A program made the translations under genes and the position numbers. Below are positions 32,392 to 60,878 of a stretch of 64,000 bases of DNA, in pieces. Location: positions 75,676 to 139,675 of the forward strand of contig JAUCBJ010005652.1 in NCBI GenBank assembly GCA_032718475.1. The letters run 5' to 3'. This DNA is from Nemertoderma westbladi. Its lineage: Eukaryota > Animalia > Xenacoelomorpha. The notes under the pieces are model-generated. The model was not told the DNA's origin. It saw only the letters and a program-made list of their open reading frames with translations, and did no database searches. Within the stretch, counting starts at the first letter, position 1. The number at the start of each line of letters is the position of its first letter.

Positions 32392-32705
32392 TTGAATAGG
32401 CTTTCCAGGATTTGGAAGTCACCTAGAATTAATCGGAAACTTAAGGTCCGATTATTCAGAGCAGCAGTAGTTCCAGTACTCCTCTACGGGAGTCCATGCT
32501 GGGCTCTAACTGCTGAGGACACCAAATCTCTGGATGGCACATTCACAAGAATGCTACGCCGGGTTCATTGTGTCAAGTACAATGCACACATCTCCAACCA
32601 GACACTATATAACATTGGAGGTGTCTCATTGGTTCCCCCAAGCTTGACACTAGAACAAAATCGCCTCCGCTTTGCAGGACATTGCTTTCGCCGTGAGGAC
32701 CAGCC
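32392..32705 (+). mobile_element. 3' fragment of an RTE-like LINE, split by LTR copy B (continues at 44613-~44770)
   Basis: Reads IWKS...LLYGSPCWALT...RLRFAGHCFRREDQP, then resumes after the element as QPVHNLVLWQPHG...LKDTGL..DRELWR. Confidence 0.87.
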
Positions 32706-33941
32706 TGTTCGCGCTTTTGAAGACCTTTAGCAGTTTAACCTGCCAAAATTTATATGTCTTTTAGTTAATTAACACACCTTTAGCATACGACAATATTTTA
32801 TGCTAATAAACAAAACATTAGCCGAAGCCAGCCCATGCGCGATCATTCACCCGATGGATCTACACCCGGGAGGCTGAATTCGGATGCTTAGATTTTATTA
32901 TTGCAGTGTAAGGTTGCAGTGTAAGCCTACTGTATTATTCGATAGATCACTAATAATTAATTTCTGACAGATATTATTAACTTTCGGGAAATATTAACAG
33001 TTCCTTTAGGACGTGGCGCTCTATCTATTTAAACAGAGCTAGGACTTATACTAAACGCAACGATAAGGCTTATGATTAAAGTATAAGTCGCATTCTTTAG
33101 GAAATGCTTTGTTACCAGTCACATCACACTCACAATCATGCACACTATTCTGCCGACCGTCAGTACATTTGATCACACATGAAGAGAACAGCAATTGACT
33201 CAGGTAGTGTCCACTAAATAACATTAGATTCAATACACACCACATTGATATAAATCGCAATTGTTATATATAGCCCGCCTCTCTAACCTGTAGTGTATCA
33301 AGAAAATTGGGAATTTGGGTGATTTATCCGTATTATCCAAAGAGCAATATTTCCATCAACAAATAGGTACAATTAATAACTGACGGTAAATAGCAGTACA
33401 AACAATATGATTAGTGCAGTTAAATTAAGTGAGGTAACACCGCCGCCGGTAACAGTTATACTTTCTATAATCTAAGCAGTTTACTAGAGTTCTTACCAAA
33501 AAGCCGGTGTTTCTGGCTTGGACAGCAATAACAACAAAGTATCAAGTAAAAACAGTAAGACTGAACACTCTCCTTATGATCGGCTGAAAAGCTACACGTC
33601 GACAGGAAAAATCGCTCTGATTGGCTCAAGCCAAACAAAGAACTATGCGTCCAATGGCTGTTTCCATGTCAGCAACCAGCTGTTAGATGTCGTAATATGA
33701 ATCATCACGGCTAAGCTGTGAAAGGTAGTTGGTGCATTACAGGTTTTTTGCTTTACCATGTCCGCCAAAACACGTATATAGCAGAATGATTTTTATGTCC
33801 GTTAAAACACCTGTAACGGTACCTTGCGGGCGAGGGGAATATATATACAGTTAGAGAACCTTTTTAGAGTATTCCAGCGCCTGGGGGGAAACTGGATTGC
33901 GAAGCAAAAGGGGCCAGTTATATCCCACAGAAGCTTTTACA
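32706..33941 (-). repeat. 3' LTR of copy B
   Basis: TG..CA, 1236 bp, matches 43377-44612. Preceded on the sense strand by a short purine-rich TGGGAGCGG (33942-33950), also present in copy C. Confidence 0.97.
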
Positions 33942-34019
33942 CCGCTCCCAGAAAATGGGATTTAAGTCTATAAAATATACAAAATCACAGTTTCTCAAAT
34001 ACGAAAATACTCTAAACAG

Positions 34020-35330
34020 TTAGTCTTTCATGCGCGGACGGCGTTTACGCAGTTTTTTAAAGCTAGCCAGAGTCTTTTTCTCTTTGGGGCGAGCCACTTT
34101 ACAAGGAGGGCTATAACTCCTGGGTGAAGGGTGCAACATGATTGCATCAGAGGGTATAGGATTATGGTCGGTGTATCCGCCAGTCGAAGTGCCGAGTTGA
34201 TTGACATCAACGTCGGGGGAGAGGGGTCTAACGGCTTTGAGAGCTCGTTTCAAGACAGCCGCTCTTACGGGTCCTTTACGAGTGGTCTGAATGAGGGCCG
34301 TGGGTGGACCATAGGCAGTTAGAAACTTCCTTGGTTTAATGGTTCTTTCCAACTCGCGTTCGCGGGCTCGGTACTCGTAAGGCCGTCGATATACTTCCTG
34401 TAACTCGATATGCGTGATTTCTGTTCGACAGAAGCGAATAGATAAGGATGGAACGCATAAATTCCTTCGTAAGCGCGTCCAAGATAATAGCGATGGCGCG
34501 AATCACGATGTAAATCAGCGTTCGCTTCCCAAGCTCTAATGTAACGTAGTGTGATCATTTCATCTACGCTTTCCAAATCGCGATTAAAAGGGCAATCGAA
34601 ACTGGCGTGTCCCTTTAGTGGACAGTGGTGACATTGAGTCATAAATTGAGGGTAAACCGCAAAAATATGCAAATTATTAAATCTGCAATACGCTCAATAA
34701 ATTTCCATCGCCGGTTGTTCGTGGAAATAGGAACAGCGGACGTTTGTGTCCATGGGCGTAACATGGTCTCTCGATGCGCATAACCGACAACGTTGCCGAG
34801 AAACATAGTTGGCATGGCGATAATCGTACGCAGTGAGACACTGTGGACCTTGATACCATTCTAGGATGTAATCGTTGTCGCTGTTCCGAGCGCGATAGGC
34901 TGAATCTCCTCAGATTCTAGGCATATTGGTTCGTCTTCCCAGTCTGTTACGAATATAATTTTCGTGATCTATTCTCGGTTTATCGTTACGACTCCGCTGG
35001 GTATGATATTTAAATAGAACCATTTCCCTTTAGGGTGTCTACATCGTCCGTATCATGTAAATCGATAGGATGGCCGGTAGTTAAGAAGTCCATACACGTA
35101 CCATTACGATGCGTATAGCGAGCGGTTAATTTTCGATAGTCCAATTCACGCGTAAGTTGCTCTTGGGACATCGGCGGTTCGATATAACGACCATCGTCCT
35201 CCGTAATAGTCGGATCGGCTTCACCGCGTATCAAGCTATCCACAAACGCTAATACCAAGGTCATCTTCTATTAATTCCGTCATATCTGCTATCTGAGTTT
35301 ATTAATATTAGTATGAGTCAATATTTAGGC
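34020..35330 (-). CDS. Accessory 3' coding region of copy B (pieces 35010..35264, 34319..34672 with a CCHC knuckle, 34020..34352 with a basic tail); spliced or decayed
   Basis: N-terminal piece AFVDSLIRG..EDDGRYIEPPMSQEQLTRELDYRK and C-terminal piece LHPSPRSY...KKLRKRR..KD* are conserved in copy C. Contains CHHCPLKGHASFDC. Confidence 0.6.
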
Positions 35331-36909
35331 AAGCGGGCGTCGCTGCCTACTAGTCTTTGACCCCGGACAGTGGGTTTCTCAGCGCCGATGTACCGTTGTA
35401 GCGGTGTTTGCGCCAACATGTAGCAACAGCACGACAACGATAATCGACACAAGTCCCACCACTGTCCGTCCCAAAGGCTTGAATCCACTTGAGGTTATCT
35501 CGGTAGAGTTAGGCTACTTTACAATTGCGATTAGCTACTGTAAACACACTTTAGTAGTATCATTCACCTATAAACGCACAAATTCCATACAATCATTACT
35601 TACTGCACACATGCAAGCCATTTTGTCCGTTAGTCATTGTCTTCCAGAATGTCACGTTATTACTATGTATCCTTGGATACTAATAGTGCGCTATGTATTC
35701 TCTTATGCTACGCAATGGGGCAAGCCTTTATTGTTCCTTTAACTTGCTTCTAATTCCAGCGTGGGTGTTGCCATGGTGACATTATGGAAAACTAGCGGTA
35801 GAATTAGGGTAATTCTCATGCATACAGATCTGGGATGTTATTTAATAGTAATTCTTTAATTGTCAATATCCTCTTTATGCATGATTTTATAAATTTTATC
35901 GGCTATTGACTATATGTTGGAGATTCTCACACTCTAATACACTCAATATGAATCTCCGCTCCCATGATCTATTAATTACTGGAATTTTGGGAATGTTATA
36001 AATTGCACAAAATGACAATTTATGAAATTCATTTGAATATGAATTTAAATTTATTCCCGTGAATTTTATTATTTGATGTTAAATTGACACAAATTTTATT
36101 CCAGAGCATATCTGGGGACTTAGGATCCTTAATTCTATAAAATAGTCCTTCTAAGAATATCGGTAAATACTGCGATATCTTAATTGACTAGAAATTTTAA
36201 AGGATCGGGATTTTACAGATTTTAATAAATATTAAATTAATATTTAGGATGGGCACCGATTTATTCCAGAACTTGTCTGGGGACATTAACCACTGATTCT
36301 AGAATTTGTCTTTCAAGTATATCGGTGGGTGCCGCGATATCTTAATCGACTAGAATTACAGGTGGTCAAAGGGTTTAACAGATTTATTTTGCGTTATACG
36401 CTACTGTTAAAGGGACATCACGCTACTATATGTATTATTTAATATAAGGTAGAAGAGCAATATCGCACGAAGCAATGTCAGTGTGAAGAGGCAAGTCGTT
36501 TCCAAGGTCTACCCAGAGCTTGGTTTAGCCGAGACACGAGGATCTGAACTTTGCATTCCTAATACTCTGCCTACCAATAATACTTAAATATAGTAGTGGC
36601 TTTATTGTACTTTAATAAGTACGGACATTTCATCTTACTGTAGTCACGTATTTATAATATGATACGGACAGTAAGGAAAGAGAAAAAATAATTATTTCTC
36701 GCCGTCGCACTAAATATATATTATAAATAATTACGTACGTAATAAACGCTAATATATTGCACTAATCTACTAAATAATCCCTAAAATAACATTCTACCAA
36801 ATAAAATTAAAGAAAACGATTATAATAATATTACGTAATAATACATACATAAATATAAAATAAAAAACAAATATAAAATGATATAGTCACACACCCACTC
36901 CATATGTTA

Positions 36910-39900
36910 TTATGTTATGGAGTCCCTAGATATTTGTCGGATTAGGGAAGTGGTCGTAGGAAGAGTATCTTGCCTTCCATAGTTTCCGGACAGTTTTTGG
37001 TCTCTTTCCAGTAAACATAAACGACCAGCTGGGTGATTGGGTTGTCGTGTTACTTTCTCCGCTCCCTTGGCCTGTCTAATCTCAGCCGGGTTAAGGTGGG
37101 GAGGCCATTCATCTTCTTCTTTACTTAGGGAGTCGGGTCCACCTAACCAGCCTGGAGTATCTATCAGTTCTTGAGGAGTTGCTCCTCTGGAAGCGATGTC
37201 GGCTGGATTAATCGTCCCAAGGCAATGTCTCCATTGATCTACATTGGAGTTAATATCGTCATTATCTGAGGAGTATGGTGTTCCCTCAGTTGGGTCGTCC
37301 ACATCACTGCTCTCCACTTCCCCCTTTACTTGGTATACCTGTTGTTGAGGTAATCTCTCTTTGAGAGTTCTACGGGAAGGGCCAGTGAAGTACCAACCTA
37401 CTCTAGTTCTTACCGCATAGGTTTGTAGTGGCTGTGGTTGAGCAGGCCGTTTCTCTAATGGCTCGAGCGCCTCATGCGCGTTTTGGCCGATGAGTATTTG
37501 CACTCCAGGATAATCGGTTTGGAATCGAGGTATCTCAAGATGTTGGATGCACTCGTCCTCGTCCCAGTTATAAGGTTCTGCTTGAGTAGTAGCAAAGTTC
37601 TTTATAGCCACCATTTTTACTGACCTTATACCTTGTGTTCCTAACTTATCCTGGGGGGTGGACAACACACCTACATAGTAATCTGCCGTTAGGGTAGATT
37701 TCCAAACCTGCATAATTCCTGACATATTCAATTTAGTCCGGAACTTGGGTTGTCCAGCAAAGATATCTTCGGCTAGTTCTTGATCGATGAATGTTCCTGT
37801 GATGCCGGAGTCAAGTAGGGCGTTCACTATGTAACTCTTGTTGGGACCATGAACTCGAACTTGCACTACAGGAAATTCTCTTATTCCTATGTTGGAAGTT
37901 GGAACTTTCCAAGATGGTTGTTTGTCAAAAGGAGTTGGAGTAAACTCGTCAGTGTCCTTTTCATCCGTAAGTGCTCGATACACTGTGGTATTTATTAGAT
38001 AACAGGATTCGTTGGCATCGGAGAATTCGTCTGTATAGAATCCTTCCCACTCAGAACCTTGGTCAGTGTCGTTCACATCACTGAATTGGACATGTAATTC
38101 GGGCTCACTTACCTGACTCGGGTTGTCTCGTTCGAACTCACTGTGTAACAAAATGTGATGTTTCGCGCCACACTTTGCACACTTTGCGTCGGAGTAACAG
38201 GTTCGCCGTTGGTGTCCTGATCTGAGGCAATTATAGCATAACCGCTTATTCCACAGGACTGTACGTCTGTCTACAGGGGATTTCTTTAGAAATTCAGCAC
38301 ACGCACTCAAACGGTGAGGCCCGTCGCACAGCGCACATTTTGGTTTGATGTTACTCACCTTAACTTGGTTAACGTTATGCACTCTCGTTCTTTCTTCGGG
38401 CTTTCTTCCGTGAATTCTCTTAGGAGACGTAGGAGGAGTTGTTGTTACCTGTTCTCTCCTGTCACTGGTTCGAGACTTGTATTTACTTACGTCTTTATAG
38501 GTCTTGTTGTCATAGTAAGATTTTGCTGTGTCTTTCCCGCTGTCCTCTTCTTGAGAAGCTTGGCTTTCGCCGTCGTCAGTATAACACACTGGTATTATCC
38601 TTCTCCTAGAATCGGGTTTCTCACTTACCTTATTTTCCGATGTTTTCTCTCTGGCCTGCCTTATAAGTTGTAATTTTACTTCACTATCTAAGAAAGACAT
38701 GAGATCAGCCATGGTAGGACTTCGTCGTTGTTGTTCATTCATGTACAACACTTTCTTGTCCCAGCGTGTACATACTCCACCCTTTGGTAAAGTAGAGACT
38801 ACGGCTCCAATAACCATGGAACTCTGATATTCATGCGACTTACCTAACCAGTCCAGTTGTCTACAGATCTCTTGAATTTCATCGGAAAACTCTATAATCC
38901 CGCTACTAAGGAAGTGTCGGGGGGCTACTAATTTTGCATACAAATACTTAGCTATGTTATCCTTGTTACCATACCTGATGTTTAGTGTATCCCAAACTTG
39001 TCTTAATCCATCTGGATGTCCAATAAACTTTAACGCCATTAACTTGGGAGGTCCTTCCAAGCACTTGATGAGGAATCTAAGTTTCTCTCCGTTAGATAGT
39101 ACAGAGTTCTGTATGCTATCTTTGTAATATTCGTTGAAAGGTAACCATTTCATCTCATCTCCATTGAATTTGACGATCTCTCCCACTTTGACCGCTTGGC
39201 GGGCTTCTGTTCTAGCCATCTGACGCGTAAAGCTTTCTTGGACCATCGTGTTATTTAATATCGAATTATCGGTATATAAATTTCTCGGATCATTATCAGG
39301 TCTATAGGGAATATCATTAATAACAGGTTTATAATCACCCTTAATAGGGTTTGCTATAGGAGTTTCAACTTCACTAGCAGTATAGATGCGTGTAGGCTCC
39401 ACACCTTGCGCATGTAGTACTTCAGACCTAACAGGTTGACACAATGTTACAGGGGGTATTGGTATGCCCTTTTGGATATTGACTAATTTGTCGCGTTCTA
39501 GTGCGATACTTTGCTGCACTTCTTGCAACTCTGCTCTACCTTCCCTCACTGTTCCCTTAAGTTGGTGGACAGTCTCCTGCATCTGTCCCAGCAGGAGATT
39601 CATCCCCCGCCGTCCCTCTTCCACCCACTCAACCGCCAAAGCGGGAGTCGCCAACATAGTAGCGGGCTGACGCGGGACGACGGGAGACAAATTATTGATT
39701 TCTCTCTCTGCTATCTGGACAGGGGTATTTGCATGGACTGTTCCACCGGGTACAGGCAGTGTAGTACTATGTAAAGGGAATTTAGAGTTAAGCTCTGGAA
39801 GTACAGGGGTCTCTAACACAGAAGTGACTTTGGGAACGACAGGCCTAATTATTTCAGGCTCATCAACTATTGTAGGGAGTCTTGTGACCTGAATAATTTG

Positions 39901-41109
39901 TTCTGTGGGTTCTGTACTACCTAAATCTGTGCTAGTTAGCTGTCTTTTAACAGCGGGGGGCAAATCAGGCAGTTTATGACGGTGAGATGTTTTTCTACGC
40001 CTGCTTAGACGAGATCTATTTCCTCCGCCTTCAGGATCGGTGGTCTCGCCTTCCTCCGATGATGTGTATCCTTGGCGCTTGGGAGTAGATCGACTCATCA
40101 TCTGCATTTGATTAGCAGTAAACTGTTTATTTATACTGTCTTGTGTCTCTTGCAGATTTTCCAACTCCAGTTGGGTAGTCTGCTCAGAGGCTCTCCGTTC
40201 TGCTTCGGCCACTGCCCTTTCCGCCTTTGCTTCTGCCGCCGCTGCCTTTCTTTTTGCTTCTGCTTCTGCCGCTGCTGCCCTTGCTGCTATTCTTTCTGCT
40301 TCTACTTCTGCCGCCGCTGCCTTTCTTTCTGCTTCTGCTTCTGCCATAGCCGCCGCCTTTTGTTCCTCTATCCTTCTTTTCTTTATTTGTTCTTCTCGGA
40401 CTCTAATGAGGCGGAGTTTTTCATCACATTCAGCTTGGTTTGCAGCTAACATTTCGGCATCGATTGCGTCCAACACAAGCTTGGTTCCTTCACTATTAGG
40501 GGAAAGTCCAGACAGCCGTCTCCTCAACTCTTCGTCTCCTAGGAATCGCTGATAGTCGGACAAATAAATGTCGATAGCGTCTCTAGTTCGCGGCTTCTCT
40601 GCTGATGTTAATTCGCTTTCCACTTCGCTTTCCACCTCGCTTTCCACTTCGCCTTCCACCTCACTTTCCACTTCGCCTTCCACCTCACTTTCCACTTGAG
40701 AAGAAGTGGCGTCGGTTGATTCCCCACAGGCTGGCCGCCCATCATAAACCGTATCCGCCATCTTCGCTCCGCGTTCGGGCGTCCGCTCAACAGTATCCGA
40801 ACTACTGGAGCTATCGGGCCGCTGAGAACTAGGTTCTTGGCTAGGAGGTTGCTGCTGTTTTATAGCTTCTTCTTGATCCCGCTTGACTTGGGCCCGAGTG
40901 CCTATGGCAGACCAACGGCGCTTCACTAACTTCGCAAATTGCGAAATCTTTTCTACCAACCTAGGTTCTGTCACAATCACCGCAGGGGTTGCCCTTCTTA
41001 CAGTATGAGGGGTTTCAGACCTCGGTCTGGGATTCTCTACACTTTGATCCGAGAAACAGGCTGTTGTTTCTAGGAGACTATCTGACAGAGTTTGCCTTGT
41101 GTCAGCCAT
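36910..41109 (-). CDS. BEL/Pao Gag-aspartic protease polyprotein of copy B; RT and integrase absent
   Basis: DUF1759-like KFNGDEMKWLPF; three knuckles CALCDGPHRLSAC, CYNCLRSGHQRRTC, CAKCGAKHHILLH; protease ALLDSG; RNase H tail QWRH..NPADIASRG..WLGGP. Confidence 0.93.
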   Translation of the reverse strand: MADTRQTLSDSLLETTACFSDQSVENPRPRSETPHTVRRATPAVIVTEPRLVEKISQFAKLVKRRWSAIGTRAQVKRDQEEAIKQQQPPSQEPSSQRPDSSSSSDTVERTPERGAKMADTVYDGRPACGESTDATSSQVESEVEGEVESEVEGEVESEVESEVESELTSAEKPRTRDAIDIYLSDYQRFLGDEELRRRLSGLSPNSEGTKLVLDAIDAEMLAANQAECDEKLRLIRVREEQIKKRRIEEQKAAAMAEAEAERKAAAAEVEAERIAARAAAAEAEAKRKAAAAEAKAERAVAEAERRASEQTTQLELENLQETQDSINKQFTANQMQMMSRSTPKRQGYTSSEEGETTDPEGGGNRSRLSRRRKTSHRHKLPDLPPAVKRQLTSTDLGSTEPTEQIIQVTRLPTIVDEPEIIRPVVPKVTSVLETPVLPELNSKFPLHSTTLPVPGGTVHANTPVQIAEREINNLSPVVPRQPATMLATPALAVEWVEEGRRGMNLLLGQMQETVHQLKGTVREGRAELQEVQQSIALERDKLVNIQKGIPIPPVTLCQPVRSEVLHAQGVEPTRIYTASEVETPIANPIKGDYKPVINDIPYRPDNDPRNLYTDNSILNNTMVQESFTRQMARTEARQAVKVGEIVKFNGDEMKWLPFNEYYKDSIQNSVLSNGEKLRFLIKCLEGPPKLMALKFIGHPDGLRQVWDTLNIRYGNKDNIAKYLYAKLVAPRHFLSSGIIEFSDEIQEICRQLDWLGKSHEYQSSMVIGAVVSTLPKGGVCTRWDKKVLYMNEQQRRSPTMADLMSFLDSEVKLQLIRQAREKTSENKVSEKPDSRRRIIPVCYTDDGESQASQEEDSGKDTAKSYYDNKTYKDVSKYKSRTSDRREQVTTTPPTSPKRIHGRKPEERTRVHNVNQVKVSNIKPKCALCDGPHRLSACAEFLKKSPVDRRTVLWNKRLCYNCLRSGHQRRTCYSDAKCAKCGAKHHILLHSEFERDNPSQVSEPELHVQFSDVNDTDQGSEWEGFYTDEFSDANESCYLINTTVYRALTDEKDTDEFTPTPFDKQPSWKVPTSNIGIREFPVVQVRVHGPNKSYIVNALLDSGITGTFIDQELAEDIFAGQPKFRTKLNMSGIMQVWKSTLTADYYVGVLSTPQDKLGTQGIRSVKMVAIKNFATTQAEPYNWDEDECIQHLEIPRFQTDYPGVQILIGQNAHEALEPLEKRPAQPQPLQTYAVRTRVGWYFTGPSRRTLKERLPQQQVYQVKGEVESSDVDDPTEGTPYSSDNDDINSNVDQWRHCLGTINPADIASRGATPQELIDTPGWLGGPDSLSKEEDEWPPHLNPAEIRQAKGAEKVTRQPNHPAGRLCLLERDQKLSGNYGRQDTLPTTTSLIRQISRDSIT

Positions 41110-43364
41110 GTTTGATTGTACAGTCGAATGCCTACTGCTATATTACAGTTAAAGCAAGTCTAGTAATTCAGTATCACTGTTAGCCTAATAATTAATTACC
41201 GATACTGCTACTCAGTGTAGCGTGATATATATATAATATATTAGAATACCGGTATGCTTATAATATATATATAAGTATTATTACAGACTAGATTTGTCAC
41301 AGAGTACCGGTATATAATTTTAGCACAAATATATATAAATATATAATAGGCCTATCGTGAATACCGGTATACAGCCTACACTTATAGTATATAAGTATAA
41401 TTCTGGACTATAATTAATTACAGAGTACCGGTATGATTTCAGCACAAATTTATAGAAATAAATATAATAAGCCTATGGTAAGTACCGGTATGTCAATTAT
41501 TTTTAGAATAATTGAATTCCTGAATATTTTAGGGTTACTTAGTTACTTTAACTTACTTTATTACCGTTATTTAAGCAGTAGTCCAACTGATATTGAGACC
41601 TAGTTGTTGTATGGCAGGCCTACTATTTATAAATCGTTTGAGTTGATTTATAATATTTATATACCCGTTTAAATGGGTTTTTGTCAATATTTGAAATAAA
41701 TGTTATTATTTCTGGGGGTCACTACACGGAAGCTGTGCACTCTCAGTGAAGTGCTATTTATTTGACACTAAAACTGATAATTCTAATTTACCTAAGTTAC
41801 TTAATACTACGAATTACTTACGATACGGGTGAGATTAATTCTCTAATTAAACACAACAAAATATTACGTACGAAATTTTTTAGGGTAATTTTACAGGAAG
41901 TCTACAAACCAGTCCAACAAAGGGTTAGATTTCTGGCTATTACAAAGGACAGGGTACTACGGTATTTAAATAATAAGTAGTAGTAAATATATTGTACTGT
42001 CCAGATAGGAAAATACCACCGCCTGACGACCTATAACCGTATCGCTATAGGTACTACGTTATGTATCACGGATTGTTCCTACCCAGAAGCTAATAGAGCT
42101 AACGAATGTGCCTATCAACCACTTTACAACACAAATATACTGCCTACACTAATTACTTTGGAAAGCACTGTACACTAAACCCTAAATTAGGTACAAGTAC
42201 CGGTATAACAAATAATCAGTAGTTAAATATACTTGAACAGTTAAAAGAACCACGGCATCTGCTGGAGTGACCGAAGCACAAAGTCGTCAGTCTTTACCTA
42301 CGCCAAGCAGCCCTGATGTAGTACCGGGGTTAGTTTAACTATAACGGTATGTATAACAAGCACAATTACTGTAGGAATAAACTTGGGGACATGAATGTTG
42401 CGAATAATCGCATAAACTCTGAATAATAAATATTACGCTACCCGTACAGAATACTCAAACAAATACAAACCAAACGCTGGCAGACTACTATTAAGCCTAA
42501 ACAAACTACAGTATATGTGCAGATTCTGAAACTGTTAGTTAGTATGCGTTCTAACACGGTAGTACGACTTACTCTTTAAGAGGGGATTGTCCTTACAGCA
42601 TATGGCTGCCCCAACTTACTAACGGCACTTGATCAGACCAACTCTACACACGCAGCAATCCCTTCAGACCCAAAAATAGCCAGACAACAATCCAGCCTAC
42701 AAAATATTTGAGTAATAACTATTACGGTACCTGAACAGACCACACAAACAAACACAGACTAAAACACTGGCAGACTACGATCAAGCCTAAACAAACTACA
42801 GTATGTGCAGATTCTGAGACTGTTAGTTAGTATGCGTTCTAACACGGTAGTACGACTTATTCTTTAAGAGGGGATTGACCTTCAGCATATGGCTGCCCCA
42901 ACTTACTAACGGCACTTGATCAGACCAACTCTACACACGCCGTAATCTCTCCAAACTCAACAACAGTCAGACAGCAGCTCAGCCTACAATTATCTGAACA
43001 ATCTGAGCAGGGTCACACGCCTTCTGCTCAATATTAGCCTACTAGTAAATAAAACCGACAGAAATAAGTAAACTATACAAAAGAATGAGGGGTGATCAAT
43101 CCCTATTCCCCTGGCAGCCTACAATATACAATAGATCACAATCGAAATAATACTAAATGTACTTGTACAGCAGTACCGGTACCGGTGATGACAGTTAGGC
43201 CTACTGACCTACAGAAGTACCGGTTCAGTTTTACCGGTCACTACGGTATTTTGCAACCTTATTGCTTACTGCAATAAGATCGATAACTGTTACTGTTCGA
43301 CAGAACAGTATTAAACTGTATTTAATGCCTACACTTGCAACCTTATTGCTTACTGCAATAAGAT

Positions 43365-43376
43365 TATAACTGTTAC
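43365..43376 (-). promoter_or_regulatory. Non-tRNA primer-binding site of copy B (sense GTAACAGTTATA), complementary to LTR 44120-44131 (33449-33460 in the 3' LTR)
   Basis: Perfect 12-nt inverted match ending exactly at the LTR edge. Confidence 0.78.
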
Positions 43377-44612
43377 TGTTCGCGCTTTTGAAGACCTTTA
43401 GCAGTTTAACCTGCCAAAATTTATATGTCTTTTAGTTAATTAACACACCTTTAGCATACGACAATATTTTATGCTAATAAACAAAACATTAGCCGAAGCC
43501 AGCCCATGCGCGATCATTCACCCGATGGATCTACACCCGGGAGGCTGAATTCGGATGCTTAGATTTTATTATTGCAGTGTAAGGTTGCAGTGTAAGCCTA
43601 CTGTATTATTCGATAGATCACTAATAATTAATTTCTGACAGATATTATTAACTTTCGGGAAATATTAACAGTTCCTTTAGGACGTGGCGCTCTATCTATT
43701 TAAACAGAGCTAGGACTTATACTAAACGCAACGATAAGGCTTATGATTAAAGTATAAGTCGCATTCTTTAGGAAATGCTTTGTTACCAGTCACATCACAC
43801 TCACAATCATGCACACTATTCTGCCGACCGTCAGTACATTTGATCACACATGAAGAGAACAGCAATTGACTCAGGTAGTGTCCACTAAATAACATTAGAT
43901 TCAATACACACCACATTGATATAAATCGCAATTGTTATATATAGCCCGCCTCTCTAACCTGTAGTGTATCAAGAAAATTGGGAATTTGGGTGATTTATCC
44001 GTATTATCCAAAGAGCAATATTTCCATCAACAAATAGGTACAATTAATAACTGACGGTAAATAGCAGTACAAACAATATGATTAGTGCAGTTAAATTAAG
44101 TGAGGTAACACCGCCGCCGGTAACAGTTATACTTTCTATAATCTAAGCAGTTTACTAGAGTTCTTACCAAAAAGCCGGTGTTTCTGGCTTGGACAGCAAT
44201 AACAACAAAGTATCAAGTAAAAACAGTAAGACTGAACACTCTCCTTATGATCGGCTGAAAAGCTACACGTCGACAGGAAAAATCGCTCTGATTGGCTCAA
44301 GCCAAACAAAGAACTATGCGTCCAATGGCTGTTTCCATGTCAGCAACCAGCTGTTAGATGTCGTAATATGAATCATCACGGCTAAGCTGTGAAAGGTAGT
44401 TGGTGCATTACAGGTTTTTTGCTTTACCATGTCCGCCAAAACACGTATATAGCAGAATGATTTTTATGTCCGTTAAAACACCTGTAACGGTACCTTGCGG
44501 GCGAGGGGAATATATATACAGTTAGAGAACCTTTTTAGAGTATTCCAGCGCCTGGGGGGAAACTGGATTGCGAAGCAAAAGGGGCCAGTTATATCCCACA
44601 GAAGCTTTTACA
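43377..44612 (-). repeat. 5' LTR of copy B
   Basis: Same sequence and length as 32706-33941; followed by the TSD. Confidence 0.97.
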
Positions 44613-44899
44613 CAGCCAGTGCATAATCTTGTACTTTGGCAGCCTCATGGAGTGAATAAGCATGGTGGACAGCCATGACTTTCTTGAGACGCATCTTAAA
44701 GGACACTGGCCTTAAAGATGCGGATGATCTAGCAAATGTCATGGGTGATAGGGAGTTGTGGCGGTGCAATTTTGTTGACTAGCCGGCACAGCATTCTTAA
44801 AAATGCAGCTGCAATGCAGCATGCCGATCCTAGTAGTAGTAGTTCCACATTAGTGTTGTGGTTTATACTATTAGTTGATACTTACATGAACAAGGTAGT

Positions 44900-47800
44900 A
44901 AACGAGTGCATTCTGCCAGTATGTTTCGAGTTTTATAACGCCAATAAACCCCAAAACCAACCCCAAAACCCATGTCCCACTCTCGACGCCCGAATTTCTG
45001 CCACCGAAGTTACAGAACCCAGTTAAACATGAGTATGTGTTTCATATATGGTTGCCATAAATAATTCGACATGTGATACATATATGTAAATGTTACAGTG
45101 TTGTCAAATGTGATCCATATGTGGAATGTTCACATGTGATACACATATGTTTTTTATGTGACAAGTGCGACAAAAAGAGTAAAAATTTAAACTGAGACCG
45201 ACCAATCACTGGTGTGGGTCTGCATTTCCTATAGAGAGGTGGGGCGGGGGGGGGGGGGTAGCCTACCTCAGTACCATTATCCTATCCAATCCCTACACCC
45301 TATCCTACGGCCCTACACCTACCCTATACATTTAGAGAAGGAAGCATCGGAGTATATATGACAATATTTAATCCATAGTGATATGAGAGTATCCTTAATA
45401 GATTTTGGTGATGATCCGTAAATTCGTATTCTATTAGTTAGATTTAATTAAGTTATCTAATTTCCAGCTATAATAGATTATTCATTTTGATAAATCTTCG
45501 AAAATTAATTAATTCTAAGATCATATAATTGCTCATATGATATTTTATATCTAATTTTAAGACATCTTTTCCCTACAACATATATATACCACATATGAAA
45601 CATATGTTCAATTTTTTAACGGGATAAGAACTGCAATAGGCCTGCCTACCTTACGGATGGTATAGTGCATGTATGTTATCTGTCTATGTCTGTACCCCTT
45701 ACTGATACTTAGCAGCGCAGATGACAATGCACAACCACAACCTGACAAGTGAAAACCACCATACAGTCATACATATGTTTGTCTAATTCTGTTAATACAG
45801 CACTGTACAGTGCAAATGGACAGCACAATGTGCATAGTGCAAGGCAGAAAGCAGGCAAGTCACACACTGCATCACTGAACAATTGAGTCAGTGAGTGGAC
45901 TATGATAAGCGGTAGGCTTATGCAACGCATTATGCTGTTATGGGTAAAATATAAAATAATTCGCGATTCACTAGCTAAACTGCAAGCGACACGACGTGGT
46001 TAAGAAGAAAGATTGGAGGATCAGACTATGAAATGCCTATCATTTTAAGAATGTGTCCCACCACCAGCCCTCAAATGCAATAAACAAAACAATTGGACGA
46101 TCGACTATGGTTACTTCAATTTAGTGTCCATACAGCCTTCACAGATCATTCAAACCTTATAGCAGGCCTATGTCTGTATGTATTGATTATACATTATATG
46201 GTTAAATAGCCGGTACTTTGAAAATACAGTATAACAAAAAATATAGATTCAACGTATTATACTGCTGATTAAAACGATATTTGTTCTTAATGCAAAAAGC
46301 TGAGTAGTGACATCAAGAAATTCCGCATCCCCCCTCGTTATTCTTTTCTGTACATGTATTACTGTAAGGACTGTATTACCATAAGGCAAACATGTGTGCA
46401 ACATATAAAATCCATGAACTGGATTACAAAATTACGAATTGAATAGTTTATAGATTGAAATTTAACTTCGGAGTCTTGGCTATGGCTATTTCACATATGC
46501 TCGACATATATTATTCACATGCGCATTCTCACACATTTATTTATGATAAATCATGTAAATTCATATGTGCAACATATAAATACCATAAATGGCGATACAC
46601 ACATTCTAAGTGTATGTATCACCGCATGCGTGACATGTATTATTCATACATGAGCATAAAAACCCAATTTCCAGACACACCTATTCCATACAACATATAT
46701 ATACCACATATGAAACATAAGTTCATGTTTAACTGGGAAGCAGTCAAAGACCAGAAAGCCCATAAGGCAGCTGGTCCAGACAGAATAACCAACGAAATAT
46801 TAAAATCCGGTTTTGGGTTATTATTACCCTACTTACTTGCTTTATTCTCTTTGTGCTTTAATTGTGCCTGTTGCCCAGTTTCGTGGTTAGCGTCGTATCT
46901 ACTACCACTTTACAAGGGAAAAGGCCCCAAGTGCTCTCCTGATAGTTATCGGGGTATAGCGATACTTTCTTGTTTACTCAAAACTTACACCGCCATTCTA
47001 TTTACTAGACTTTATACGTGGGCGGAGTCTCATTTTATTTTACCGGTCCAGCAGTTCGGCTTTCGAAAAAAGCATTCCACAAAAATGGCTGTCAATTTAC
47101 TGTATAACTTCATTCATACATCGCTACAACCCGCAGGTGGTCATGTGTATTGTGTTTTTGTTGATTTTACCAAAGCTTTTGACTCCGTTAACAGGCAAAA
47201 ACTTTGTTTTAAATTATCTCGTTTCGGTGTCAGCAAACATTTTATATCCTGTATTTGGGCCCTTATTGCTATTAATTTTGTCTACATTTGTGTTGGTGCA
47301 TACGTTCTACAGCCGATAATTCAGACCATTGGTGTTGTGCAAGGGGATAAACTTTCACCTCTTTTATTTAGTTTGTTTGTTGCAGATCTACCTAGTATTT
47401 TAGTTGCAGCTGGCTGCCTTGTTATTATGATGCCGACGACCTGGCAATAGATGGTAACTCGATTGTTGACGTACAAAATGGTCTTGATTCTCTAGTTGAC
47501 TATTGTAAGGTAAATGACCTAACCGTCAATTTATCCAAAACCAAAGCCATAAAATTTCGCCGGGGAGGTCGCATGTGTAACAATGATGTTCTAATTTACA
47601 AAGGTACGAAGATCGAATTTGTCAGTGAGTTTAATTATCTCGGTACAACTCTCTCAACCAAAAATGGCCCCAGCGGTCACTTCGCGCACTTGCACAAAAG
47701 GGGTCTGGCATGCTGTGTCCACTTAGCCTCGAAAATAAATATGTATCTGATCTCCTTAGACTCAGCAAAACGTCTATGGCTCTCGGTGGTCTTCCCTGCA

Positions 47801-48215
47801 GTCACCCATGGGTGCGATATTTTCACACCCTCCGAGAACATTGCCGTTCTAGAACATGTTCGCAAATGTCGCGCCTTTTATTTTAAACTGTGGTGTGGAG
47901 TAAGCAAGTTCTCCTCCTCCACTGCGATACTAGACGCCGTAGACAACGTCGTCAACCCCGATTGTGACATCAGGTTGGGAGGCCTGTCCGGCTTCCGCCG
48001 CCGTGCAGCGGCGTTGCTTCTCTCCAACGGGTGTCATCAGACTCTTTGCAGCAGTCCCAACTGTTGGAAAGCGGATGATGGTTGCATCTGCTTGCTGTGC
48101 ATCAATCCGGCTGACACTAAATTGCACTTCAAATCTTGCCCTGGCATTCCCCCATGCGCGACTGACCTTCGATGCGCTCTTTTCCTTCTCACCCTGGGTC
48201 TCCCCAAATAATTAT
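44900..48215 (+). mobile_element. 5'-truncated non-LTR retrotransposon (LINE; RT plus C-terminal CCHC), interrupted at 45018-46737
   Basis: Removing the insert restores LDARISATEVTEAVKDQKAHKAAGPDRI. Motifs YRGIAIL, QFGFRK, FVDFTKAFDSV, QGDKLSPLLF, frameshifted ADD, FNYLG, CLLC..H..SCP. Confidence 0.88.
45018..46737. mobile_element. Non-autonomous CACTA/EnSpm-like element (CCC...GGG, 2-bp TSD AA)
   Basis: TIR CCCAGTTAAACATGA / TCATGTTTAACTGGG. AA is duplicated and the LINE frame is restored on removal. Subterminal CATATG/CACAT repeats; a second right-end-like copy ends at 45623. Confidence 0.88.
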
Positions 48216-49730: not shown

Positions 49731-50934
49731 TGTTCGCGCTTTCAGACCTTTGGCAGTTTAACCCGCCAAATTAGGATGTCTTCTAGATAATAAATCACCT
49801 TTAGCCTATGACAAGTATTTAATTCACTACACTAGTCGAAACCAATCTGTGCGCGATCATTCACCCGTTGGATATACCCGGGAGATTGGGTTCGACGGCT
49901 TAATTTTATTGCTATGTAAGCCTAATGTATTATTCGACTGACAGTATTATATAATCTCTGACAATATTATTCACCTTCGGGAAATATTAACAGTTCCTTT
50001 AGGACGTGGCGCTCTATCTATATAAACAGAGTTATGACTTAAACTACTCACAACGATATGGCTTAGTTACAATTCACATATATGGCGCATTCTTTAGGAA
50101 ATGCTTCGTTATCAGTCTCACTCATACACAATGCTGCACAATACTGCACACTGATCTGCCGATCTTCACTGATTTTAGTCACATATAAAAGGAACACGGA
50201 CCGAATCATGTAGGGTCTATCAAATAACATTAGATTCACTTCAAACCACTCAACATAGGTCGCAATCATTTATCTGTAACCTTTCTCTCTTACCTTCGGT
50301 ATATCAAGAATATTGGGTTTTCGGGGTTATTTGTCGTTATTCCAAATATAATAATTCATCAACCATATTATGAAGAACTGACAGTAAATAGCAGTATAAC
50401 AATATAAAAGTATGCACAGTGTTACACAGTATGCAGTGTATGCAGTACTGCAGTATGCAGTATGCAGACATCAGACATCAGATAACGGATATATGTCCTT
50501 ATAATTAAGCCTACTAGTGTAAGACTAAAAACTGAAAACACGGAGGTGCCAAAAGCCGGTTCTTAGGCTCTGGGCAAAACATAACACTGAACTACTGAGT
50601 TTCTGTATACACCTCCAACACAGAGACAACAAACGCTCTGATTGGTCAACCTGAACAACGAGAGAACAAAGAAACAAAGAAACGTCGACGTGGCAATATC
50701 AGCTGCTAGCCGTCGTCATGGTAGCGACACTGTTTTCAAGAGTATCGAGCTTTTACGTCACGGAATTACGGATTATGTCCTCTAAAGTACAAATACAGAA
50801 GAAATAGCTTTTATGTCCGCTAAAACACCAGTACAGCAAGGACACGGCCTTTTTATGCCTGGTAAACCAACTACAGAGTATTTTACGGGAAAAATAAGGA
50901 AAAATAACCGGACAATTCAGCAAAAGCTTTTACA
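49731..50934 (-). repeat. 3' LTR of copy C (1204 bp)
   Basis: TGTTCGCGC...AGCTTTTACA, followed by CCGCTCCCAGAAAATGGG as in copy B. Confidence 0.95.
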
Positions 50935-54145: not shown

Positions 54146-57100
54146 TCACTCAAAGTATATGACGGCGTTACAAAGCCGATTCCAGGAGCTATAGTGGTCC
54201 GTCGCTCCCTGCAGGAGAGGTAAGAGTCCCTGCGAGACGTCTGATGTTCCAGAGCTCCAATCGCTCCCTCTGATCTTCATGAAGGATCCACTCGCGGTGG
54301 GGAGGTCCAGATCCACGGCGTCGTCCCTGGCAATATGTAATACCGACAGATCTATCCCGGGTTCAAATAACTCCGCTCCACCCGTCCGGGTTTTAGGTTT
54401 AACTTTCTCCGCTCCCTTGGCTGGTCTAATCTCAGTCGGAGTAAGATGGGGAGACCATTCATCCTCCTTACTCAGGAAGTCGGGTTCACCTAACCGGTCT
54501 GTAGTATCTGTCAGTTCTTGAGGAGTTGCTCCTCTGGAAGCGATATCAGTTGGATTAAACTTCTTGGGGCAATATCTCCATTGATCTACATTGGAGCTAA
54601 GATTGTCATTATCTGAGGAGTGTGGTGTTCCCTCAGTTGGGTCGTCTCCCTCACTAGTATCATCTTCCCATTCACTCACCTGGCGGACGCGATCTTGAAG
54701 CAGTCTTTCCCTGAGCGTTCTACGGGAAGGTCCAGTAAGGTACCAACCTACTCTAGTTCTTACCGCATAGGTCTGTAGTGGCTGCGGTTGAGCAGGTCGT
54801 TTCTCTAATGTCTCCAGCGCCTCATGCGCGTTTTGGCCGATGAGTATTTGCACTCCAGGATAATCAGTCTGGAATCGAGGTATGTTAAGATGTTGGATGC
54901 TCTCATCCTCGTCCCAATTATAAAGGTCTGCTTGAGTAGTAGCGAAGTTCTTTATAGCCACCATTTTCACTGACCTTATGCTATGTTCTCCTAGTTCGTC
55001 CTGGGGGGTGGACAACGCGCCTACATAATAATCAGCTGTTACTGTAGATTTCCAAACTTGCATGATTCCTGACATGTTTAGCTTGGTTCCGAACTTGGGT
55101 TGTCCAGCAAAGATGACTTCGGCTAGTTCTTTATCGATGAATGTTCCTGTGCTACCGGAGTCCAGGAGGGCGTTCACTATATAGCTCTTCTGAGGTCCGT
55201 GGACCCGTAACTGGACTACAGGAAATTCTCGGATTCCTATATTGGAAGTTGGCGCTTTCCAAGATGGTTGTTGATCGGAAGTAGTTAAGGTAGGGTCGCT
55301 GTCTGTGTCTTTCTCATACACGAGTGCTCGATACACTGCGGTGGTGTTTATTAGGTAACAGGATTCGTTTTGGTCGGAGAACTCGTCCGTATAGAATCCT
55401 TCCATCTCAGATTGATCAGTGTCGTTCACATCACTGAATTGGACATGTAGTTCGGACTCACTTACCTGACTCGGGCTGTTTCGTTCGAATTCCGTGTGCA
55501 ACAAGATATGATGTTTTGCGCCGCACTTTGCACACCTTGCGTCGGAGTTACAGGTTCGCCGTTGGTGTCCTCGTCTGAGGCAATTATAACACAACCGCTT
55601 ATCCCACATGACTTCACGTCTATCCTTTAGTGATTTCCTCAGGAATTTATCACACGCATTTAAACGGTGGGGCCCGTCGCACAGCACACATTTCGGCTTG
55701 ATGTTACTTACTTTAACCTGTGCTATGTGGTGCACACTTGTTCTTTCCTCGGGCTTTCTCACCTGAATTCTTTTAGGAGACGTAGGAAGGGTTTTTTGTA
55801 CCGGTTCCCTTCTGTCATTGGGTCGAGACTCGGATTTACTTACCTGATCTTTAGGCATTTTATTGACATAATAAGATCTGTCAGTGTCTTTCCCGCTGTC
55901 CTCTCCTTGAGAAGTTTGGCTTTCACCGTCGTCGGTATAACATACTGGTGTTACACTTCTCCTAGAAACGGGTTTCTCACTTACCTTGTTTTCCAATGTC
56001 TTCTCTCTGGACTGCCTTAGGAGCTGTAATTTCACTTCTCTATCTAAGAATGACATGAGATCAGCCATGGTAGGGTCTCGTCGTTGTTGTTCCATCATAT
56101 ATAACACTTTCTTATCCCAGCGTGTACCTACTCCACCCTTCGGTAAAGTAGAAGCCACTGCTCTAATAACCATAGCACTCTGATACTCATGAGACTTACC
56201 TAGCCAATCTAATTGTCTGCAGATCTCCTGAATTTCATCGGAAAACTCTATAATCCCGCTGCTAATAAACTTTCGGGGCGCTACCAACTTTGCATACAAA
56301 TACCCAGCTATGTTATTCCTATTACCATACCTGATGTTTAGTGTATCCCAAACTTGTCTTAATCCGTCTGGATGTCCAATAAACCTTAACGCCATTAACT
56401 TGGGAGATCCTTCCAAGCACTCGATGAGGTATCTAAGTTTTTCTCCATTAGATAGTACAGAGTTCTGTATGTTATCTTTGTAATATTCATTAAAAGGTAA
56501 CCATTTCATCTCATCTCCATTGAACTTGACGATCTCTCCCACCTTTACCGCTTGCCGGGCTTCGGTTCTAGCCATTTGACGCGTAAAACTTTCTTGGGCC
56601 ATCGTGTTATTTAATATAGAATTATCGATATATAAATTTCTCGGATTATGATCAGTTCTATAGGGAATATCATTATCAACAGGTCTATAATTACCCTTAA
56701 TAGGGTTCACTATAGGAGTTTCTACTTCGCTAGCAGTATAGATGCGTGTAGGCTCCACACCTTGCGCATGAGATACTTCAGACCTAACGGGTTGACACAT
56801 TGTTACAGAGGGTGGTGGTATACCCTTTTTTAAGTTTACTAATTTATCGCGTTCTAACGCGATACTTTGCTGCACTTCTTGCAACTCTAACTTACTTTCC
56901 CTCACTGTTCCTTTTAAATGTTGGACAGTCCCTTCCAACTCTCGGACCTGTTGGGAAGAGCGTATCCGATTCTCCTTCATCTCTCCTAGGAGAATATCCA
57001 TCCCCCGCCGTCTCTCGTCTACCCAATCAACCGCCGAAACGGGATCCGCCAACGTCGTAGCGGGCAAACGAGGGACAACGGGCGACAAATTTGGAATATT

Positions 57101-58150
57101 TCGCTCGGGGTCCAGGACCTGAACTGTCTCCTGGGCAGTTCTACGGGGCACAGGTAGCTTAGTGCTATGCAGAGGGAATTTATAGGTAGCTTCAGGGAGC
57201 ACAGGTGTATCTATTACCGAAGGGGTGATTTCAAGAACAGGCCTACCTATTTCAGGCTCATCTACTATAGTAGGGAGTCTTTCTATTGTAATTATTTGGT
57301 CTGTGGGTTCTGTACTCTCTAAGTTGGTGTTATTTAGTTGCCTTCTAACAGCTGGAGGCAAATCAGGCAATTTCTGACGGTGGAATGTTCTTTTACGTCT
57401 GCTTAGGCGGGATCGATTTCCTCCGCCTTCAGTGTCGGTGGTATCGCCTTCCTCAGATGATGTATAACCTTGTCTTTTGGGAGTAGATCGATTCATCATC
57501 TGCATATTACTAGCTGTTAACTGTTTATTAAAGTTATCTTGCCTCTCTTGAAGATTTTCCAACTCTAGTTGGGTTGTCTCTTCAGATGCCCTCCGTTCTG
57601 CTTCTGCCACTGCTATCTTTCTTTCCGCTTCTGCCGCTGCCGCTTTCCTTTCCGCTTCTACGGCTGCAGCTGCCGCCTTTGCCTCTGCCGCTGCCGCTTT
57701 CCTTTCCGCTTCTACGGCTGCAGCTGCCGCTTTTGCCTCTGCCGCTGCCGCTTTTATTGCTGCAGCTGCCGCTTTTGCCTCTGCCGCTGCCTCTGCTGCC
57801 TTTCTTTCCGCTTCTGCCGCTGCCACTGCCGCTGCTGCTGTCTTTCTATCTTCTATACGTTTTTTCCTTACTTGCTCTTCTTGAACTCTATTGATGCGGA
57901 GGAGTTCATCAAATTTAGCTTGGTTCGCCGCTAACATTTCCGCATCAATTGCGTCCACCACAAGCTTGGTTCCTTCACTATTAGGGCTAAGCCCCTCCAG
58001 CCTTCTCCTCAACTCGTCATCTCCTAAAAAACGCTGATAGTCTGACAGATAGATGTCAATGGCATCCCTCTTATGCGGTTTCTCTGCTGTCACTTCGCTC
58101 TCGGTTGTATCTAGTAGACTGTCTGACAGGTTCTGCTTTGCGTCAGACAT
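54146..58150 (-). CDS. BEL/Pao Gag-aspartic protease polyprotein of copy C; RT and integrase absent
   Basis: Same domains as B: three knuckles, ALLDSGSTGTFI, QWRY..NPTDIASRG. Ends in the pre-integrase-like YSSWNRLCNAVIYF. Confidence 0.93.
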   Translation of the reverse strand: MSDAKQNLSDSLLDTTESEVTAEKPHKRDAIDIYLSDYQRFLGDDELRRRLEGLSPNSEGTKLVVDAIDAEMLAANQAKFDELLRINRVQEEQVRKKRIEDRKTAAAAVAAAEAERKAAEAAAEAKAAAAAIKAAAAEAKAAAAAVEAERKAAAAEAKAAAAAVEAERKAAAAEAERKIAVAEAERRASEETTQLELENLQERQDNFNKQLTASNMQMMNRSTPKRQGYTSSEEGDTTDTEGGGNRSRLSRRKRTFHRQKLPDLPPAVRRQLNNTNLESTEPTDQIITIERLPTIVDEPEIGRPVLEITPSVIDTPVLPEATYKFPLHSTKLPVPRRTAQETVQVLDPERNIPNLSPVVPRLPATTLADPVSAVDWVDERRRGMDILLGEMKENRIRSSQQVRELEGTVQHLKGTVRESKLELQEVQQSIALERDKLVNLKKGIPPPSVTMCQPVRSEVSHAQGVEPTRIYTASEVETPIVNPIKGNYRPVDNDIPYRTDHNPRNLYIDNSILNNTMAQESFTRQMARTEARQAVKVGEIVKFNGDEMKWLPFNEYYKDNIQNSVLSNGEKLRYLIECLEGSPKLMALRFIGHPDGLRQVWDTLNIRYGNRNNIAGYLYAKLVAPRKFISSGIIEFSDEIQEICRQLDWLGKSHEYQSAMVIRAVASTLPKGGVGTRWDKKVLYMMEQQRRDPTMADLMSFLDREVKLQLLRQSREKTLENKVSEKPVSRRSVTPVCYTDDGESQTSQGEDSGKDTDRSYYVNKMPKDQVSKSESRPNDRREPVQKTLPTSPKRIQVRKPEERTSVHHIAQVKVSNIKPKCVLCDGPHRLNACDKFLRKSLKDRREVMWDKRLCYNCLRRGHQRRTCNSDARCAKCGAKHHILLHTEFERNSPSQVSESELHVQFSDVNDTDQSEMEGFYTDEFSDQNESCYLINTTAVYRALVYEKDTDSDPTLTTSDQQPSWKAPTSNIGIREFPVVQLRVHGPQKSYIVNALLDSGSTGTFIDKELAEVIFAGQPKFGTKLNMSGIMQVWKSTVTADYYVGALSTPQDELGEHSIRSVKMVAIKNFATTQADLYNWDEDESIQHLNIPRFQTDYPGVQILIGQNAHEALETLEKRPAQPQPLQTYAVRTRVGWYLTGPSRRTLRERLLQDRVRQVSEWEDDTSEGDDPTEGTPHSSDNDNLSSNVDQWRYCPKKFNPTDIASRGATPQELTDTTDRLGEPDFLSKEDEWSPHLTPTEIRPAKGAEKVKPKTRTGGAELFEPGIDLSVLHIARDDAVDLDLPTASGSFMKIRGSDWSSGTSDVSQGLLPLLQGATDHYSSWNRLCNAVIYFE

Positions 58151-60515: not shown

Positions 60516-60527
60516 TATATCCGTTAT
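60516..60527 (-). promoter_or_regulatory. Non-tRNA primer-binding site of copy C (sense ATAACGGATATA), complementary to LTR 50482-50493
   Basis: Perfect 12-nt inverted match ending at the LTR edge; seen via the intact 3' LTR. Confidence 0.78.
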
Positions 60528-60878
60528 TGTTCGCGCTTTCAGACCTTTGGCAGTTTAACCCGCCAAATTAGGATGTCTTCTAGATAATAAATCACCTTTA
60601 GCCTATGACAAGTATTTAATTCACTACACTAGTCGAAACCAATCTGTGCGCGATCATTCACCCGTTGGATATACCCGGGAGATTGGGTTCGACGGCTTAA
60701 TTTTATTGCTATGTAAGCCTAATGTATTATTCGACTGACAGTATTATATAATCTCTGACAATATTATTCACCTTCGGGAAATATTAACAGTTCCTTTAGG
60801 ACGTGGCGCTCTATCTATATAAACAGAGTTATGACTTAAACTACTCACAACGATATGGCTTAGTTACAATTCACATAT
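60528..60878 (-). repeat. U5-side part of the 5' LTR of copy C
   Basis: Matches 49731-50081, then breaks abruptly. Confidence 0.93.

Follow-up and report, generated by a model that had tools for sequence, protein, structure and literature searches.

Three related BEL/Pao elements in the window

The window, by which we mean the whole 64,000-nt stretch of DNA that was analysed, holds three related BEL/Pao copies, A, B and C, all on the minus strand, whose LTRs are 66-70% identical among themselves. Copy B is complete (32706-44612); its two 1236-nt LTRs show 0 mismatches and are flanked by a 5-bp TSD, indicating that it inserted recently. Copy A extends past the left edge of the window, and its sole LTR within the window is the 5' LTR. 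Copy C has a whole 3' LTR, while its 5' LTR is broken off beyond 60878; from 60879 onward an AT-rich insertion interrupts it. The features of the three copies are as follows.

43377-44612, minus strand: 5' LTR of B, 1236 nt, TG...CA, identical to the 3' LTR
43365-43376, minus strand: PBS of B, 12 nt, adjoining the LTR, without TGG
44120-44131, minus strand: complementary site of B, predicted 3' end of the self-primer, with a putative cut between 44120 and 44119
44132-44156, minus strand: conserved context 5' of the site in B, predicted to form a weaker second helix with post-PBS bases
44288-44295, minus strand: CCAAT box of B, conserved (A 5879, C 50645)
44231-44236, minus strand: TTCAGT, putative initiator-like motif of B, at which transcription is predicted to start (corresponding positions: A 5824, C 50591)
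44172-44190, minus strand: conserved hairpin of B in the predicted start-to-site interval
43565-43570, minus strand: AATAAA of B, candidate poly(A) signal; that of A is not identical
43398-43417, minus strand: U5 hairpin of B, a predicted fold kept in all three copies
43342-43362, minus strand: hairpin of B directly 3' of the PBS, kept in all three copies
43258-43298, minus strand: leader duplicate found only in B, in which the end of the LTR, 11 nt of the PBS and the hairpin are repeated
36910-41142, minus strand: ORF of B, with Gag (DUF1759, zinc knuckles), a protease-like region and a C-terminal RNase H remnant
33942-33949, minus strand: polypurine tract (PPT) of B before the 3' LTR, the same in C
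32706-33941, minus strand: 3' LTR of B, in which the site recurs at 33449-33460
44613-44617 and 32701-32705, minus strand: 5-bp TSD of B, flanking the LTR pair
4909-6120, minus strand: 5' LTR of A, 1212 nt
4898-4908, minus strand: PBS of A, 11 nt
5698-5708, minus strand: complementary site of A, in its 5' LTR
60528-60878, minus strand: what remains of the 5' LTR of C, its 3' portion, interrupted past 60878
60516-60527, minus strand: PBS of C, 12 nt
54146-58183, minus strand: ORF of C, Gag-protease with an RNase H remnant
49731-50934, minus strand: 3' LTR of C, 1204 nt, with its complementary site at 50482-50493

Coding content of the elements and their neighbours

Pfam DUF1759 is matched in A, B and C (E 4e-12 to 2e-11). 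B and C each carry one long ORF that runs from a DUF1759 Gag through zinc knuckles and a protease-like region to an RNase H end, a remnant of 56-67 residues after the protease. These ORFs match a profile of 29 BEL/Pao polyproteins at 2e-80 and 7e-82, and four of four homologues of the window proteins carry PF03564, PF05380 and PF18701. The elements also have the LTRs, PPT and short TSD of BEL/Pao. Membership in BEL/Pao, which had been proposed in an earlier reading made from the sequence only, holds in these sequence comparisons: DUF1759, the domains of the homologues and the polyprotein profile all agree, and the placement rests on Gag-protease. Close protein relatives were absent from the collections searched, where the best matches are 24-38% identical.

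Neither RT nor integrase could be matched in B or C with BEL/Pao proteins or with the 29-polyprotein profile. Because RT and integrase are missing, we regard A, B and C as non-autonomous BEL/Pao elements, which are likely to borrow their enzymes from an intact relative. Such an RT-encoding partner, which the sequence-only reading had proposed to collect along with the family's copies, turned up neither in the window nor in metagenome and viral contigs in protein and LTR-pattern searches; the viral contigs yielded one partial locus, which is unrelated. Two RT ORFs in the window (12115-13365 and 46443-48211) were considered as BEL/Pao partners and rejected, since BEL/Pao proteins and the profile leave them unmatched; these RT fragments probably belong to non-LTR elements. 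In B, the interval from the pol remnant to the 3' LTR contains a broken frame with a CCHC zinc-knuckle-like motif (34322-34693, minus strand), and C holds pieces related to it, possibly a decayed extra gene.

The remainder of the window includes host genes for a glycosyl hydrolase 20 (18105-19886), a ribosomal protein S10-like protein (22086-22934) and the Lsg1 GTPase (26822-29347), each a single open frame with no apparent introns. Lsg1 resembles its counterparts in many different animals to a similar degree, with ~47% identity. There are also tandem arrays at 15554-18130 (43-nt units), 20175-21172 (54), 62741-63953 (21) and 8028-8558 (30).

Each PBS is complementary to the LTR of its own copy

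The sequence-only reading held that the bases following each 5' LTR lack the TGG of a tRNA PBS and are instead complementary to a site within the copy's own LTR. All seven strings that it quoted are found at the positions it gave, and no TGG occurs in the first 20 nt past each LTR of A, B and C. Read from the LTR edge, the PBS finds its reverse complement within its own LTR over at most 11 nt in A, 12 nt in B and 12 nt in C, at 789, 743 and 751 nt from the U5 end, which reproduces the lengths and distances first reported; the complement to the LTRs of the other two copies is only 5-6 nt. For C the site was taken from the 3' LTR, its 5' LTR being interrupted, and the 351 comparable bases of the two are identical. 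A was read from its 5' LTR, its 3' LTR lying beyond the window.

A low chance probability had been estimated for these matches, and shuffling bears this out: dinucleotide-shuffled LTRs equal the observed length in 4/3000 cases for A, 0/3000 for B and 0/3000 for C. When offsets of 0-5 and spliced pairings are permitted, the counts are 2/300, 0/300 and 0/300.

The pairing is precise at the LTR boundary. An offset scan agrees with the earlier claim that it halts exactly there: in all three copies pairing begins at the LTR edge itself. The sites of A, B and C are orthologous, lying beside a common conserved upstream context, as had also been noted. The PBSs differ among copies while complementarity stays; 5 of 11 aligned PBS positions vary, and all five are compensated in the copy's own site. 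Altogether, 35 of 35 site:PBS pairs are Watson-Crick, with zero G-U, and in a 3x3 comparison of site/PBS duplexes the cognate pairs are the most stable. The base following the site is C in all three copies and is unable to pair with the LTR's final A. All three PBSs begin RTAAY. A tRNA-like gene inside the LTR was considered and rejected, given that ARAGORN reports zero tRNAs in the window and that Rfam returns only noise-level matches on the LTR and leader of B.

Predicted start and folding of the RNA

Upstream of the site, each LTR carries two motifs at a regular spacing. The first is a CCAAT box, and it precedes the second, TTCAGT, by 54-59 nt in all three LTRs. From TTCAGT to the site it is a further 98-116 nt in each LTR, with a conserved hairpin in between, and the distance from CCAAT to the site is 152-171 nt. 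By analogy with invertebrate promoters, we take TTCAGT to be a putative initiator; the site would therefore fall inside R, and the primer would be 110-127 nt long rather than 11-12. The sequence-only reading had put the start of transcription at or near the complementary site, and this part is probably wrong, since CCAAT and TTCAGT together place the predicted start well upstream. A second short helix is predicted between bases 5' of the site and bases after the PBS; this helix, too, would need RNA upstream of the core.

In whole-leader folds, which span 800-1400 nt and are unreliable at such length, the probability of the site:PBS helix is ~0 in 14 of 16 runs and 0.05 and 0.21 in the remaining two, and forcing the helix costs 3-13 kcal/mol; these folds lend a helix in cis no support. 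The bare site:PBS helix is weak (-8 to -13 kcal/mol). A U5 hairpin and a post-PBS hairpin are predicted in A, B and C, and a U5-leader stem of ~5-7 bp appears in some folds only. A conserved duplex directly after the primer, of the Tf1 helper type, is absent among the three copies.

The leader duplicate of B (43258-43298) sits 84 nt downstream and is a possible second annealing site. Downstream of the site, donor-like and acceptor-like motifs occur at corresponding positions on the minus strand of all three copies (B 43722-43958, A 5226-5472, C 50044-50293); a putative intron of 236-249 nt between them would cut the distance from primer to PBS. We saw zero read support for this LTR intron in A, B or C.

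Alleles in host sequencing runs

The family is very abundant in host DNA runs, and we sampled its host copies as contigs of four public runs, X1, X3, X4 and X5, none of them registered as RNA, though X5 may be. A PBS allele that is one base longer (at 43367) is present in all four, with depths of 78,833/241,698 in X1, 28,387/103,603 in X3, 266/266 in X4 and 27/37 in X5. A site carrying the matching extra base is found in four contigs of X1 and one of X3, the longer PBS and longer site alleles falling on separate short contigs that are not physically linked. The contigs with the longer site are unlike B past the site, so conservation ends at its 3' end. Site alleles had been predicted from PBS alleles beforehand: one of the three was found, and the other two were not seen in the contigs of the runs. 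For the covariation that the sequence-only reading proposed to test in other host copies, the longer allele, present at both PBS and site, speaks in favour, and the two unseen alleles count against it.

In a single X1 contig, plus-strand sequence from 44120 onward follows directly on the final 17 bases of U5. The contig reads U5, PBS and then the reverse complement of sequence upstream of the site. This junction could be the expected product of copying a primer of >12 nt; it could also be a fold-back chimera of the library.

Self-complementary PBSs in BEL/Pao elements of other animals

We fetched relatives with the alignment of 29 BEL/Pao polyproteins, from animal DNA inside prokaryote genome bins. 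Animal LTR retrotransposons are numerous in bins G001, G002, G074, G206 and others (38 matches in G074), which suggests that these bins contain host DNA. Matches came from 3 of the 201 genomes of one family that were searched. In total, 38 BEL/Pao loci or regions were inspected and the 20 with a readable LTR end were scored; in the 18 that were dropped, the LTR end and following sequence were unreadable (L001, L003, L005-L008, L011, L014, L017, L019, L020, L037, L054, L055, L057, L090, L094, L096).

In 13 of the 20 scored elements TGG stands at most a few bases from the LTR; a self-complement of >6 nt occurs in 0/13. The other seven, from five families, lack TGG, and six of them have a self-complement of 11-14 nt. 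With offsets of 0-5 and both contiguous and spliced pairings permitted in the null, shuffles reach the observed length in 0-3 of 300 for each of the six. Self-complement and TGG are thus mutually exclusive in 19 of 20 scored elements. Cross-pairs between relatives reach 5-9 nt. These comparisons indicate that a self-complementary PBS extends beyond one BEL/Pao family.

In one of the six, L002, the complement is contiguous (11 nt), as in the window copies. The other five (L004, L009, L012, L051, L052) have theirs only across a predicted LTR intron, bounded by a GTRAG donor and, 318-1022 nt away, by a YAG acceptor rich in pyrimidines. The introns are predicted from sequence, with LTR donors at L004:2095, L009:7478 and L012:7472. 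In L012 and L009, a complement of 7-8 nt begins right after the pyrimidine-rich YAG, and a GTAAG donor is preceded by bases that match the rest of the PBS. The splice rule was derived from these two and then applied to other loci. L004 obeys it (11 nt, 0/400 in two nulls), and so do L051 and L052, which were fetched later (11 nt each). L051 and L052 have a common donor; two of the last three bases of exon 1 differ between them, and their PBSs carry the corresponding changes. The sibling of L004, L053, fails the preset pyrimidine acceptor filter (8 nt, 73/300 shuffles), with the same donor and acceptor visible by eye. For these readings the LTR end of L004 was set by eye, the site of L009 was read from the 3' LTR, and the LTR of L012 was taken without TG...CA ends; the L012 LTR pair (L012:7166-7870) nonetheless has a flanking 5-bp duplication. 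The complement would not exist before splicing, which suggests that the pairing takes place in RNA and involves a transcript of the element itself.

Two further features concern the ends of these predicted exons. AATAAA comes within a few bases after the complement in L004, L051, L052 and L053. TATA boxes predict an exon 1 of ~190 nt in L004 and L053 and of ~95 nt in L051 and L052, in line with an internal primer end.

In a FastTree phylogeny of RT-RNase H-integrase (38 rows), the six self-complementary elements fall within one 24-row clade with support 99, which excludes the six TGG elements in the tree and includes sea-urchin elements. Its host range suggests that this clade may be the Sinbad/Suzu ('Sailor') part of BEL/Pao. 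The window family offers only Gag-protease for trees, and its branch there is long. It falls outside the self-complementary clade in one tree (SH-aLRT 98) and is joined to that clade in another (support 72). A single origin of the window family and the clade is neither shown nor rejected by these sequences.

A probable primer made from the element's own RNA

Self-priming of the window family, with all its variants taken together, is likely given the complement in the copy's own LTR, its compensation, the alleles, the split between TGG and self-complement, and the intron-spanning complements. The proposal in the sequence-only reading of a tRNA-independent, self-priming BEL/Pao lineage is in this sense well supported by sequence comparison; its Tf1-like start at the site is probably wrong. 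Our best reading, to which we give a probability of about 0.6, is that A, B and C are non-autonomous BEL/Pao elements in which the PBS pairs with the copy's own LTR and the primer is the predicted 110-127-nt fragment from the 5' end of the RNA.

Transcription would start at TTCAGT, which precedes the site by ~100 nt. The site, lying within R, would anneal to the PBS with the help of the short second helix just 5' of it. The RNase H of the partner's RT would cut right after the site, before the conserved C, leaving a 3' OH that faces U5. From this end RT would make minus strong-stop DNA of up to ~750 nt, which would jump to the 3' R, and the site would be recopied from the 3' LTR. Plus-strand synthesis would then copy the last 11-12 nt of the primer, rewriting the PBS from the LTR site in every round; such rewriting would explain the 35 Watson-Crick pairs and the stop at the LTR edge. 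In the intron-bearing relatives, removal of the LTR intron by splicing would create this primer end. More broadly, we consider it reasonably probable that a branch of animal BEL/Pao does without tRNA priming and uses a long 5' primer from its own RNA, built by splicing in many members, with the window family being intron-free and having an unusually long distance (~750 nt) between primer and PBS.

Several other explanations bear on the same observations. That the complements arose by chance, or as an inverted repeat in the DNA that a single ancestor passed on, might be entertained because the window holds only three related copies and its sequence is AT-rich; the shuffles and the five compensated positions speak against this, and intron-spanning complements in the elements of other animals cannot be DNA hairpins, so that we regard this idea as negligible and already contradicted by the sequences. 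A functional helix need not prime, however. Long-range leader helices are common among retroelements, and the site is present in the 3' R too, as would suit a structure for leader folding, dimerisation, packaging or 5'-3' circularisation via the 3' R, with a host RNA or another route doing the priming. Yet TGG is missing from the first 20 nt after the three LTRs and the three PBSs are different, every one of the 35 pairs is Watson-Crick, the pairing ends exactly where DNA synthesis must begin, and TGG and self-complement exclude one another in 19/20 other elements; a purely structural role is therefore doubtful, and the least favoured of the readings that accept a real helix.

Two variants of self-priming differ from ours in where the primer comes from. 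In a strict Tf1-type scheme, transcription would start at or just before the site and the primer would be the first 11-25 nt of the RNA. Three traits resemble Tf1: the length of 11-12 nt, the location right at the edge of the LTR, and a PBS that begins RTAAY. The conserved motif that lies 8-20 nt ahead of the site might also act as an initiator. We find this scheme unlikely, because a CCAAT box 152-171 nt before the site is far for a start there, because TTCAGT follows CCAAT by 54-59 nt in 3/3 copies, and because TATA in L051/L052 and L004/L053 predicts an exon 1 of ~95-190 nt. Alternatively, the primer could act in trans: a separate short LTR transcript, running from the start to the poly(A) site, would anneal to the PBS of the full-length RNA and be cut, substituting for a tRNA; it would be spliced in intron-bearing relatives and possibly come from solo or 3' LTRs. 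This would account for intron retention in the relatives, the packaged RNA remaining unspliced, and for AATAAA directly after the site in L051, L052, L004 and L053; it requires no 750-nt loop, which folding does not favour, and the family is very abundant in host DNA. Against this, each copy pairs with its own LTR and not with those of others, which is simplest in cis, and a shared pool would draw the PBSs towards the most expressed subfamily. Such a primer in trans is about as improbable as the Tf1-type start, and we favour the 110-127-nt primer made in cis.

Relation to known systems

Self-priming is demonstrated in Tf1 and has been deduced for Tf1/sushi, Tcn1 and copia TAR, according to the available parts of PMC7175516, PMC4600332, PMC10085805 and PMC6317226. 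Tf1/Tf2 (Schizosaccharomyces pombe), Tj1, Tosmo1-3 and Tf1/sushi have a PBS of ~11 nt adjoining the 5' LTR that is complementary to the element's own LTR, and no tRNA, like the window copies. The Tf1 self-primer is cut by RNase H in the accessible part of PMC7175516. The portion available of PMC11042837 describes that the PBS is copied into cDNA and the primer end copied during plus-strand synthesis, and gives a Tf1 PBS that begins ATAAC, compared with RTAAY in the window copies. In contrast, Tf1/sushi are Ty3/gypsy chromoviruses, whereas the window copies encode BEL/Pao proteins, of another superfamily, and in Tf1 the very 5' end of the RNA supplies the complement, an arrangement against which the motif spacing in the window argues. 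Compared with the three-duplex pretzel of Tf1, the window copies have the predicted U5 and post-PBS hairpins and, in some folds only, the U5-leader stem of ~5-7 bp, with no conserved duplex following the primer.

For plant TAR elements (Houba, Osr-1; Ty1/copia) and Tcn1 (gypsy), self-priming was predicted from a complement of at least 10 nt between post-LTR sequence and LTR, as the part of PMC6317226 that was available states; this is the same level of evidence, a sequence complement, as for the window copies. TAR and Tcn1 belong to other superfamilies, with plants as hosts of the TAR elements, and the part of that study available reports contiguous complements only; its screen would miss intron-split ones.

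The Belpaoviridae (Tas, BEL, Pao, Sinbad, Suzu) have in common with the window copies a DUF1759 Gag, zinc knuckles and a protease, and also RNase H (a remnant here), TG...CA LTRs, a 5-bp TSD and a PPT. They differ in having a tRNA PBS as well as RT and integrase, which together with RNase H stand in a gypsy-like order, whereas the window copies lack a TGG PBS, RT and integrase. Their ICTV profile describes them as tRNA-primed, with a PBS of 18 nt that serves host tRNA-Arg or tRNA-Gly (PMC8742986), and in that source tRNA priming of BEL/Pao is described by assumption. PBS or tRNA terms are absent from PMC3118150 and PMC554778, and the available portions of PMC3601003, PMC3286476, PMC8220671, PMC6934838, PMC9873768 and PMC13524379 contain no self-priming BEL/Pao. 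In the open full-text literature searched, as far as its accessible parts go and with Repbase, GyDB, subscription papers and supplements outside the scope, self-priming BEL/Pao elements are undescribed.

These elements are thus most likely self-priming, in a superfamily where this is undescribed, and the splice-built primer of their relatives is the newest part. If true, each of the three superfamilies of LTR retrotransposons would have acquired self-priming. A primer located inside the RNA, or one put together by splicing, would represent a mode of priming unseen in the accessible parts of the literature searched, and in the intron-bearing relatives host splicing would license reverse transcription and bar the unspliced 3' copy from use. 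The predicted site and start provide exact coordinates for mapping RNA ends, and self-complementarity would offer a simple annotation rule for the many BEL/Pao elements without a recognisable PBS.
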